Below are positions 1 to 9,036 of a stretch of 13,009 nucleotides of DNA, piece by piece. The position numbers were made by a program, and so were the translations under genes. The notes below the pieces were generated by a model. The model did no database searches. It worked only from the letters and a program-made list of their open reading frames with translations, and was not told the origin of the DNA. This DNA comes from a virus (taxonomy: Duplodnaviria > Heunggongvirae > Uroviricota > Caudoviricetes). Every line of letters begins with the position of its first letter. Positions within the stretch are counted from its first letter, which is position 1. The stretch is taken from IMG/VR virus record IMGVR_UViG_2619619134_000011, one strand, 5' to 3'.

Positions 1-173
1 TGTCAGTTATCATCTTCGGTTACGGTTATCGGCAGAACGCCCTGCCGCTGACAAGAGCTTATTTGCCTGACCAATCTACTCCACATGATAGATAACTATC
101 ATTTATAACATTTCATTGATTAGCCTTTATTTTTCATTGCGTTACAAATAACACCCCTGTCAAAAACAGCGAA

Positions 174-197
174 ATTAACTACACCATTAACTACACC
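174..197. repeat. Perfect tandem duplication of the 12-bp unit ATTAACTACACC
   Basis: Read directly: ATTAACTACACC at 174-185 and again at 186-197, in non-coding DNA. Confidence 0.9.
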
Positions 198-202
198 GTT
201 TC

Positions 203-231
203 ACGAACAATATCGAACAACCACGAACAAA
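203..231. repeat. Three phased CGAACAA heptamers; contains a 17-bp sequence repeated at 7730-7746
   Basis: CGAACAA at 204-210, 214-220 and 224-230 (about one helical turn apart). GAACAACCACGAACAAA at 215-231 is identical to 7730-7746. Confidence 0.85.
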
Positions 232-461
232 GATCAACACGCTTTAACCGTTATCATTTTTCGGCTATCCGTTATGAAGCTGGTGGATGTTCCCCGATAT
301 GGAGATCCCCATATCGAGAACCCTACCGGATTTTTTTTCCGGTTAACTGTTAATCAGGCTGGTGGGCTTTACCTGTTCGGTAGGTGTTATGATTATCGTA
401 ATACCTTTCCCCCAATGGGGTAAAAGCATCAACCGTAACGAAAGTCGTTATGGTTGCCACC

Positions 462-574
462 GATACCCCAAATTTGGGTATCACGAGTAAGCCCCAAAAT
501 CTGGGTGTTACTCTTACTACCCAAACTACGGGTAGTTTCCGTAGTTTCATGGTCGAGTTGCAGATCTGCAACTC
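462..574. repeat. Structured non-coding repeat cluster: three CCCAAA-N-GGG units, GTAGTTTC x2 and a 20-bp perfect palindrome
   Basis: Near-palindrome GATACCCCAAATTTGGGTATC (462-482); CCCCAAAATCTGGG (492-505); CCCAAACTACGGG (520-532); direct repeat GTAGTTTC (532-539, 541-548); perfect palindrome GAGTTGCAGATCTGCAACTC (555-574). The ORFs the track lists here overlap one another and look spurious. Confidence 0.85.
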
Positions 575-867
575 CCCCATCAACCACAGGCGAATTTCCG
601 CCTTCGGTCATTCCTTAATCATCTGCGTAATCATAATGATTATTCAGCCAGCTCAATTTTGAGCTTTGCTTTAAGTTCAGCGAGTTGCCGCGCCGACTTC
701 CTCAAATTGAGGTTTCCGAAAATATCAGCGGGTTAGCGATTAAGCTGACCATTAATTAAACTGCGAAAATTTCGTAGTTTGTGACTGTCTTTCAGGCAGC
801 TTGTTAACAGTCCTCAGAAGCGAGGGATGTAGCCACCCATTTTTGGGCCGTCGGGAATATCAACCAG

Positions 868-1149
868 TTACCGCCGCAACCGCTCCGGCTTCTTCCAGTG
901 GTACGTGATTTTCTCCTTCTCCCGATACAGTTCAACGCGGCGATTGTAGGCCAGCATTTCCAGAACGCGGATCCGTATATCGCGCATATCCGCATCATTA
1001 AGCTGGATACCATCACGGCGCATCACCTCAGCAACAACACGCGCATAATTTTCAGCGGTCACGCTGTCCGGCTGCGTGGTCTGTTCGTCAGCCTGCTGGC
1101 TGATTCCAGAGACGCGGCGGATTAATCGCAGTATTTCGGCTTCTGTCAT
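868..1149 (-). CDS. Hypothetical protein (93 aa), last gene of the packaging operon
   Basis: ORF begins 13 nt after the terL stop, with a GAGG Shine-Dalgarno about 10 nt upstream of its ATG. I recognise no motif. Coding status inferred from operon context only. Confidence 0.45.
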   Translation of the reverse strand: MTEAEILRLIRRVSGISQQADEQTTQPDSVTAENYARVVAEVMRRDGIQLNDADMRDIRIRVLEMLAYNRRVELYREKEKITYHWKKPERLRR

Positions 1150-3164: not shown

Positions 3165-3217
3165 GCTTATTTTTTCGCCAGATTATTTTTCAAAAAATTC
3201 CCGTGCATAAAAATTTG

Positions 3218-3277
3218 AGGAGGCGGTCGGTGCCCGGCGGGGTCGGGTTTGTCCTGAAAACGCCCCCCCACCCCGTC
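3218..3277. other. Candidate cos core (cosN-like GC-rich dyad) in the HNH-terS intergenic region
   Basis: The 290-bp gap between HNH stop (3455) and terS start (3164) holds a G-rich block (GGCGGTCGGTGCCCGGCGGGGTCGGG) and a C-rich block (CGCCCCCCCACCCCG) around TTTGTCCTGAAAA, giving approximate two-fold symmetry. An AT-rich tract (3165-3217) lies between it and terS. In HK97/lambda-like phages cos sits between HNH and terS. This is inference. Confidence 0.3.
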
Positions 3278-3454
3278 ATACAGCCTCATCAGCGATTGCG
3301 GAAACATTCCATAACCTCGCGGTCACGGTCGGTTAATCGCTTCGCTGTGATGCGTTCTGCGCGTCCTGACGCTTTATCTTTATGCCCTGTTTCCTGTGTC
3401 TTCCATGCGTCACGCTGCCTTATAAGTCCACGGATAAGGCGGTTTTGTTCCCGC

Positions 3455-8810: not shown

Positions 8811-9036
8811 GTCTACCTTATCTACCTTACTGGCTCTCATGCCAGTAATGGCGCGGCTTTCAGCGGGGTAGAGTGCTTTTATCCACTATCTACCCCGTAT
8901 CTACCTCCCTGTCTGATTCAGGTAAAATCAGGTAGAGAGGGTAGATAGTAGGTAGACAGTGAAAAAAGGCTGTCTACCTAAGTTAATATACTGAATTAAA
9001 TGTATTTTTCTTTACTCAGGTAGACAGGGTAGACAG
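8811..9036. repeat. Iteron array: putative replication origin
   Basis: Eleven copies of the hexamer GGTAGA/TCTACC in both orientations (TCTACC at 8812, 8821, 8889, 8900, 8973; GGTAGA at 8867, 8931, 8940, 8951, 9019, 9028), several extended to GGTAGACAG, flanking an AT-rich segment (8981-9017). Immediately downstream of the primase/helicase gene. Confidence 0.7.

Follow-up and report, generated by a model that had tools for sequence, protein, structure and literature searches.

We analyzed the structured non-coding region at the end of a capsid-forming phage-inducible chromosomal island (PICI), a phage satellite of E. coli that is contained in the IMG/VR record IMGVR_UViG_2619619134_000011 (Caudoviricetes). 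The record comprises 13,009 nucleotides, and this whole stretch is referred to here as the window. On balance, the region appears to be a composite of three parts: an arm of the attachment site (attP) of the excised island, a trailer of hairpins built by recombination and, within this trailer, a slowly evolving hairpin cluster that we call module C. The region had previously been described, from the letters alone, as a highly structured 860-bp non-coding tail downstream of the last gene (hereafter the initial annotation). A non-coding tail does exist; however, its length is 765 bp (103-867), and the first 102 bases of the window are the leader of the host gene clpS.

All of the repeats and palindromes listed in the initial annotation are present and exceed chance expectation. 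The right half of the region is far above chance in self-complementarity: RNA folding of positions 400-720 gave z-scores of -9.2 (minus strand) and -9.6 (plus strand), and none of 100 shuffled sequences was equally stable. DNA folding of positions 103-400 gave a z-score of -2.45, and RNA folding of a terL control of equal length gave -0.14. The near-equal scores of the two strands in the right half point to true palindromes at the DNA level. Among the individual repeats, CGAACAA is found at 204, 214 and 224 in exact 10-bp phase; the whole window contains seven copies (2.4 expected), a number that was reached in only 1 of 200 shuffles. The CCCAAA-N4-GGGT units start at 467, 493 and 520, and the related pattern ACCC-N4-TTTGGG has three exact matches (one on the plus strand and two on the minus strand) and is absent from the rest of the window. 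A tandem GTAGTTTC occupies 532-539 and 541-548, a perfect 20-bp palindrome is located at 555-574, and other hairpins are present at 588-603, 623-647, 650-665 and 701-713. What had been listed as an 8-bp inverted repeat at 295-316 is really a near-perfect palindrome of 22 bp (CGATATGGAGA/TCCCCATATCG). In addition, two Chi octamers in the tail (279-286 and 358-365) had not been mentioned before. The coordinates of the main features are shown in Table 1.

Table 1. Features of the island end and of the adjoining host DNA (positions refer to the window)
Feature	Position	Strand	Details
Host DNA, region upstream of clpS	1-102		clpS start codon just left of position 1
att core copy	87-102		GATAGATAACTATCAT; overlaps the position of the yljB stop codon
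attP arm, side away from the integrase gene	103-290		88-98% identical in PICIs with other cargo at the clpS/yljB site
Tandem ATTAACTACACC, two copies	174-197	+	candidate arm-type binding sites
Three CACGAACAA / CGAACAA repeats	202-230	+	10-bp phase; candidate arm-type binding sites
Chi octamer	279-286	+	GCTGGTGG; one of 16 in the window
Module B	295-458		22-bp palindrome centred on GATC (295-316), ACCGGA-T8-CCGGT hairpin (325-343), Chi (358-365), hairpin with a 12-bp stem (430-456) and, on the minus strand, UUUU after it
Candidate intrinsic terminator of the late operon	421-456	-	stem 430-441/445-456, then AUGCUUUU; read from sequence
Module C, hairpin cluster	457-606		hp1 462-482 (GATACCC-N7-GGGTATC); hp2 485-513; hp3 517-535 or 523-547; hp4 20-bp palindrome 555-574; hp5 588-603
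Scar, 3' flank and stop-codon region of the last gene from other lineages	627-691		89-91% identity with gene-end fragments of L062, L029 and L016 (their positions 13-77)
Scar, third 3'-flank type	699-727		hairpin CCTCAAATTGAGG at 701-713; 100% match to the 3' flank of this gene in E. coli 042 (L004)
Own 3' flank of the last gene	798-867	-	contains the small hairpin ACCCATTTTTGGGC (836-850); unchanged in the closest relatives
Last island gene, 93-aa protein, phrog_1561	868-1149	-	constant neighbour of the trailers

Host boundary and attachment-site arm

The island in the window is sited between yljB and clpS. Its genes all lie on the minus strand, in the order alpA, primase, single-stranded DNA-binding protein (SSB), major capsid protein, prohead protease, portal, head closure and connector proteins, HNH, P27-family small terminase subunit (TerS), large terminase subunit (TerL) and a final open reading frame (ORF) encoding a protein of 93 amino acids (aa). 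This gene set matches the published description of capsid-forming PICIs (bioRxiv 10.1101/2022.09.08.507074). Positions 1-1200 of the window are 100% identical to a locus of E. coli TOE17 (L001), in which the island lies between clpS and yljB/cspD, clpS is annotated directly left of the matching stretch and a tyrosine integrase is encoded at the far end. The relative EcCIEDL933 matches the window with 95% identity over 322-1200 and 97.6% over 322-870.

We also carried out the comparison with an empty chromosomal site that the initial annotation had suggested. The empty site of E. coli K-12 is 99% identical to the window up to positions ~102-106 and unrelated beyond. On the basis of this alignment, the junction between host and island is at 102/103, and island DNA starts at 103. 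Because the identity to the empty site ends at ~102, the listed repeats are island DNA and not host DNA; it had been considered earlier that the boundary might lie to the right of the repeats, which would have placed them in the host, but it lies to their left. The same comparison defines the att core, which recurs as GATAAATAACTATCATC / GATAAATAACTATCAT(C) at the integrase end of the TOE17 island (L001 29549-29565) and in K-12 attB. The core, GATA[G/A]ATAACTATCAT, is duplicated at the opposite end of the island and occupies the junction of the two arms in the excised circular PICI.

Several observations concern this insertion site. The yljB gene encodes 24 residues (25 codons), and its stop codon falls inside the att core (window 87-102; L002 2241-2315), which places the island between yljB and clpS. 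The island genes and clpS point in the same direction, so that read-through from the island could reach clpS-clpA. A scan for tRNA and tmRNA genes found none. A search with the tail DNA returned no match among phage records and only PICI-like matches among plasmid records.

Next to the core, positions 103 to ~290 appear to be an ordinary attP arm, and this assignment is well supported by sequence comparison among islands. The segment adjoins the core at the junction between element and host, it is contiguous with the integrase arm in the circular form, its repeats occur on both arms and are rare elsewhere, and it is conserved independently of the cargo, being common to capsid-forming and classical PICIs that carry unrelated packaging modules at the clpS site (L003, L004, L005, L011 and others). 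The tandem 12-mer pair is also found on the integrase-side arm in TOE17 (L001 29403-29429), and CGAACA(A) motifs are present on both arms. Thus, the attachment-site arm that had been suggested for the structured region as a whole was recovered from 103 to ~290, and the remainder (295-867) belongs to the mosaic trailer described below.

The arrangement of the complete site could be seen in the circular record NZ_CP148328.1 (10,790 bp), in which int, its arm, the core and the tail arm follow one another without interruption. Window positions 85-278 align to this record directly after the core with 89% identity. In the circular attP, ACTACACC is located at -142, -130, +90 and +102 from the core, and only one further single copy exists in the whole 10.8 kb. 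CGAACA is located at -96, -86, -23, -13, +116, +126 and +136, always in one orientation and in many cases with 10-bp spacing; the motifs are arranged symmetrically around the core. This design is repeated in islands at the tqsA and phoQ sites, where a tandem ACTACACC pair lies ~70 nt from the junction and phased GAACAA motifs come after it. It should be noted that NZ_CP148328.1 (L011, 1-10790) was deposited as a non-mobilizable E. coli 'plasmid' and represents an excised circular PICI with an intact attP; its gene content includes int, alpA, primase, a protease-capsid fusion and the 93-aa gene.

From the observed placement and conservation of the repeats, we infer that the ACTACACC 12-mers and the 10-bp-phased CGAACAA motifs are arm-type sites. 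They would be bound by a P4-like tyrosine integrase, probably together with an AlpA-type directionality factor and a host bending protein, and the bound proteins would form the synaptic complex through which the island integrates at, and excises from, the yljB/clpS core. Each motif class is a candidate site for Int, AlpA or IHF. Arm-type recombinase sites of lambda and P4 have the same architecture. As in the P and P' arms of lambda and in elements with P4-family integrases, a short core is flanked on either side, within ~150 bp, by short direct repeats, and the partial 10-bp phase of the PICI repeats resembles that of lambda P'1-P'3. The PICI arm also shares with other attP arms of tyrosine-integrase elements that it adjoins the integrase gene in the circle and is common to elements using the same integrase family. 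In contrast with the lambda and P4 arms, ACTACACC and CGAACAA are specific to the PICI integrase group, and the two motif classes occur on both arms. The boundary, core and arm have thereby been placed for a PICI family under active study, and the candidate recombinase sites are directly testable.

A mosaic trailer behind the last gene

The remainder of the tail (295-867) appears to be a trailer built by recombination among PICIs, in which stacked alternative 3' flanks of the last gene are joined to modules B and C. In 5,426 complete E. coli genomes and in IMG/VR, the sub-segments 295-458, 457-606, 627-691, 699-727 and 798-867 were found to occur independently of one another, and their arrangement varies from locus to locus. 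We compared 49 relatives for which at least 600 nt of sequence downstream of the gene was available and observed 15 module combinations; module C was present in 13 of these relatives, whereas 16 had no module at all. Locus L113, whose 93-aa gene is identical, is stacked in the same manner from other pieces. Variability in relatives had been named in the initial annotation as an argument against an ordered functional region, and it was found in part: across 295-867, the same last gene is followed by many different module combinations or by none.

Two of the trailer segments, 627-691 and 699-727, match the gene-end flanks of other lineages, and therefore much of the apparent order consists of repeated copies of one small post-gene hairpin. 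The former segment includes a stop codon and the last bases of the 93-aa gene. Members of the hairpin family have a CAATTTTG-type loop and covarying stems (ACGCA/TGCGT, GTGCA/TGCAC, ACCCA/TGGGC and GGCG/CGCC). The hairpin at 836-850 is of the same family as hp5 of module C, and their stems covary. The strongly negative fold z-scores and the compensatory changes in hp1 and hp5 favor selection on the hairpins. Thus, the ordered look of the region largely reflects its recombination history, which cautions against assigning a function to every repeat.

Module B directly follows the arm and is common to PICIs at the tqsA, phoQ and clpS sites. Its palindrome is present several times in locus L005, and L113 contains a diverged copy of the module in which the candidate terminator at 421-456 is conserved. 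This terminator was not called by a consensus terminator scan, its minus-strand stem having one A.C mismatch. The only canonical terminator-like site found in 1-1200 is the hairpin at 650-665 within the scar, which is terminator-like on the plus strand.

Our best guess is that the trailer may act as a boundary, for transcription and for mRNA ends, that separates the late operon from attP, int or the host neighbour. Three points weigh against this reading. First, there is a single canonical terminator call and it is on the plus strand, which leaves the boundary role weakly supported. Second, since about a third of the close relatives (16 of 49, as above) carry no module, no module can be essential to the life cycle of the island. 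Third, a generic boundary role leaves the near-invariant loops and linkers of module C unexplained.

The trailer resembles repetitive extragenic palindromic (REP) and bacterial interspersed mosaic element (BIME)-like elements as well as intrinsic terminators, in that arrays of short hairpins with GC stems follow the last gene, the stems covary and the copies have been duplicated and shuffled. However, it has no sequence relation to REP or enterobacterial repetitive intergenic consensus (ERIC) elements, most of its hairpins lack a U-tract, and module C is conserved far beyond what is usual for REP/BIME-like elements and is confined to PICIs. Another comparable system is the sib retroregulator of lambda, likewise a structured element by attP, on the arm opposite int, that is joined to or separated from int by recombination. 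It differs in that int of the PICI is transcribed away from attP, so that the trailer lies upstream of int in the circle. The consulted papers on capsid-forming PICIs, including bioRxiv 10.1101/2022.09.08.507074, do not discuss the tail region, and a full-text literature search for the exact repeat sequences found nothing.

The conserved hairpin cluster of module C

Module C contains the three CCCAAA-N-GGG units, the tandem GTAGTTTC and the 20-bp palindrome. It was found in 664 of the 5,426 complete E. coli genomes (~12%), at 754 places, and in 68 IMG/VR contigs. Most PICIs have 10-40 bp between the 93-aa gene and the module, whereas in the window ~250 bp of scars intervene. When 29 lineages were compared with the window, the core of the module (462-585) was 93.2% identical, compared with 79.8% for the adjacent gene and 70.6% for the third codon positions of that gene. 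Module C thus changes far more slowly than neighbouring synonymous sites, which implies either strong constraint or recent spread. One possible reading, which we put forward tentatively, is that module C is a PICI-specific functional element (a structured RNA or a protein-binding hairpin array) that selection keeps near-invariant and that acts, maybe in partnership with the Arg-rich 93-aa protein, at a step which capsid-forming and classical PICIs share. Alternatively, the conservation could result from a recent horizontal spread of the module. On the present data, module C may be an RNA, an array bound by protein or a passenger that spread recently.

The form that a function might take was considered in three ways. 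First, module C, with or without module B, could be a structured non-coding RNA. It would then be either the minus-strand 3' untranslated region of the late operon, perhaps matured into a stable small RNA (sRNA), or an antisense RNA, with helper-phage or host transcripts as targets. The extreme fold z-scores and a conservation well above that of neighbouring synonymous sites would be expected of such an RNA. It is further favored by compensatory changes in hp1 and hp5, where three base pairs show double changes (in five, one and three sequences, respectively); however, helices hp2-hp4 are invariant and lend no covariation support, and the covariation score is modest (0.059 vs 0.038 in shuffles). 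Some one-sided changes are G.U-compatible on the minus strand, but taken together such changes favor neither strand, so that the wobble evidence is divided. Moreover, both strands fold about equally, as DNA-level palindromes would, and a scan of 1-1200 for sigma-70-like promoters found none. With a permissive cutoff, Rfam 15 yielded only sub-threshold matches across the whole window, the best in the region being to the manA RNA motif (RF01745) at 496-665 on the minus strand (E = 0.046). Although manA is also a multi-hairpin RNA, the score of 21.6 bits is far from the gathering threshold of 55.2, and module C is not a member. A literature search on SpLE2 and sRNA returned nothing relevant. Taken together, we consider an RNA product doubtful, if still a serious candidate.

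Second, the equal folding of both strands is what true palindromes in a DNA protein-binding array should show. Such an array would consist of three TACCC-N7-GGGTA-type inverted repeats ~27 bp apart plus the 20-22-bp palindrome, and would be recognized by a dimeric protein of the island, helper or host, for which the 93-aa protein is one candidate. In agreement with this, ACCC-N4-TTTGGG occurs three times here and nowhere else in the window, the half-sites of unit 1 are conserved while its spacer varies (CAAA, TTTA, TATA, TGTA, AAAA), and the module sits close to the 93-aa gene in most PICIs. On the other hand, invariance extends to the spacers of units 2 and 3 and to the inter-unit linkers, and no promoter is nearby to be regulated. 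The 93-aa gene occurs without module C in L004, L007 and L009, module C occurs without this gene beside it in L043 and L075, and the protein has no recognizable DNA-binding fold. A binding array therefore seems rather unlikely to us.

Third, the 27-bp spacing of the units could reflect codon periodicity in a small plus-strand gene (450-662, 70 aa) with three 9-residue xPxNLG[IV]T repeats. The frame is open in nearly all variants, an in-frame ATG is present in two unrelated upstream contexts, GGT codons lie exactly 27 nt apart, and several multi-allelic sites are synonymous in this frame (CTT/CTA/CTG, TCA/TCC/TCG, GCG/GCA and CAG/CAA). However, the synonymous fraction of 0.35-0.37 (0.23 expected) is equalled in two minus-strand frames (0.35-0.40) and is thus not frame-specific. 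In addition, a 1-nt deletion in L020 shifts the frame, and the C-termini differ wholly between lineages. The predicted product forms 19 clusters among 5.8 billion proteins, all from E. coli and rarely called as genes, with no distant homologs and no Pfam or PHROG matches. A coding sequence would also not need palindromic units with compensatory stem changes. We regard a gene at this position as improbable.

Distant homologs of module C were sought for the covariation analysis. A scan of genome contigs yielded two loci, a protein-profile scan recovered only relatives with at least 86% identity, and a degenerate two-unit pattern matched only close relatives and chance sequences in IMG/VR. Several other candidates, namely boxA/boxB-like nut sites, the PurR box, P4 crr-type iterons and G4-type priming signals, were rejected, either because of poor sequence fit or because the module is not tied to one replicon type. 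Replicon types indeed differ among the islands: L008 has a RepA helicase and the window has a primase. Module C is a non-coding segment of ~150 bp that is present in hundreds of E. coli genomes and evolves several-fold more slowly than adjacent synonymous sites. If it has a function, it would add a new cis element or a new RNA to those of phage satellites.

The 93-aa protein encoded next to the trailers had no match to a Pfam family, to a solved structure in the PDB or, by tblastn, to phage sequences. Its AlphaFold2 model consists of three helices (predicted local distance difference test score of 70), for which a fold search found no match, and its identification as an Rpp protein was ruled out. 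This helical protein and its homologs (L003-L079) have an Arg-rich C-terminus, which reads ...AYRRRSQQRRESAKNTYQWKKPERLRR in most lineages and which we take to be loosely reminiscent of the arginine-rich motif of lambda N.

Predicted packaging signals, Chi sites and a possible origin

An alternative packaging site in the tail had also been suggested, and we considered the cos/pac site itself as well. Phased repeats and palindromes do occur in cosB-type sites, and the 10-mer TCCTCAAATT is common to 694-703 and the predicted cos region. However, this 10-mer falls in a gene-end scar, the lambda cosN GGGCGGCGACCT was not found in the tail with up to one mismatch allowed, and many relatives lack the modules altogether. 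In addition, an HK97-like cos signature is located at ~3215-3285, directly upstream of terS as in HK97, and in classical PICIs the cosN copies flank terS, upstream of the 93-aa gene and not in the trailer. A packaging role of the tail is thus highly improbable, and we did not retain this suggestion. The suggestion of a partition-like site was likewise given up, as no Par-type gene is annotated in the matching TOE17 island or in the circular PICI.

The HK97-like signature lies on the minus strand in the intergenic region between HNH and terS, and consists of a G-run, ~35 nt, GACCGCC...CAAA and then a stretch rich in AT ahead of terS. The sequence GACGGGGTGGGGGGGCG...CACCGACCGCCTCCTCAAA|TTTTTATGC (window 3215-3285, minus strand), which lies between the 60-aa ORF/HNH and terS, parallels the HK97 ends ...GGGCAGGGGGGGGGGATC...AATGACCGCCGCCAAA|GTTTGAATTT. 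The likeness to HK97 extends to the genes, since HNH, P27-family TerS and TerL are all encoded in the island; by contrast, the tail (103-867) shows no HK97-type signature. Judged by this similarity, 3215-3285 is the probable cos site of the capsid-forming PICI; the position of cos is not given in the consulted papers on these islands, including bioRxiv 10.1101/2022.09.08.507074. In classical PICIs, two lambda-type cosN copies in inverted orientation flank a terS-like gene (L007 5736-5747 (+) and 6603-6614 (-); L008 5870-5881 (+) and 6737-6748 (-)). This agrees with the two cos sites (cos1/cos2) reported for EcCICFT073 (PMC6739421).

The island is also very rich in Chi. We identified 16 copies of GCTGGTGG in the 13 kb of the window (7 on the plus and 9 on the minus strand; positions 279, 358, 1528, 4308, 4753, 5757, 5885, 7975, 8116, 8450, 9750, 10011, 10870, 12214, 12666 and 12698), compared with 0.4 in shuffled sequences and an average of 0.73 for octamers of the same composition. 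Other PICI loci contain 0.8-1.0 Chi per kb. The average density in E. coli is ~0.2 per kb. This saturation suggests that linear or concatemeric satellite DNA is protected from RecBCD. In a full-text literature search, no paper turned up that deals with an enrichment of Chi in PICIs. Both the predicted cos site and the abundance of Chi bear on the packaging of satellites and on their survival of RecBCD. TOE17 carries a second integrase-bearing island on the other side of clpA (L001 1-12000), with DUF3987, inovirus Gp2-like genes, insertion sequence elements and a group II intron; unlike the PICI, it has no Chi in 12.4 kb.

Finally, a long imperfect palindrome with repeated GGTAGATA / TATCTACC units is located at 8874-8971, between the primase and SSB genes. 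The palindrome produced a spurious match to mir-3927 in the Rfam scan, which was discarded, and the segment is probably a replication origin.

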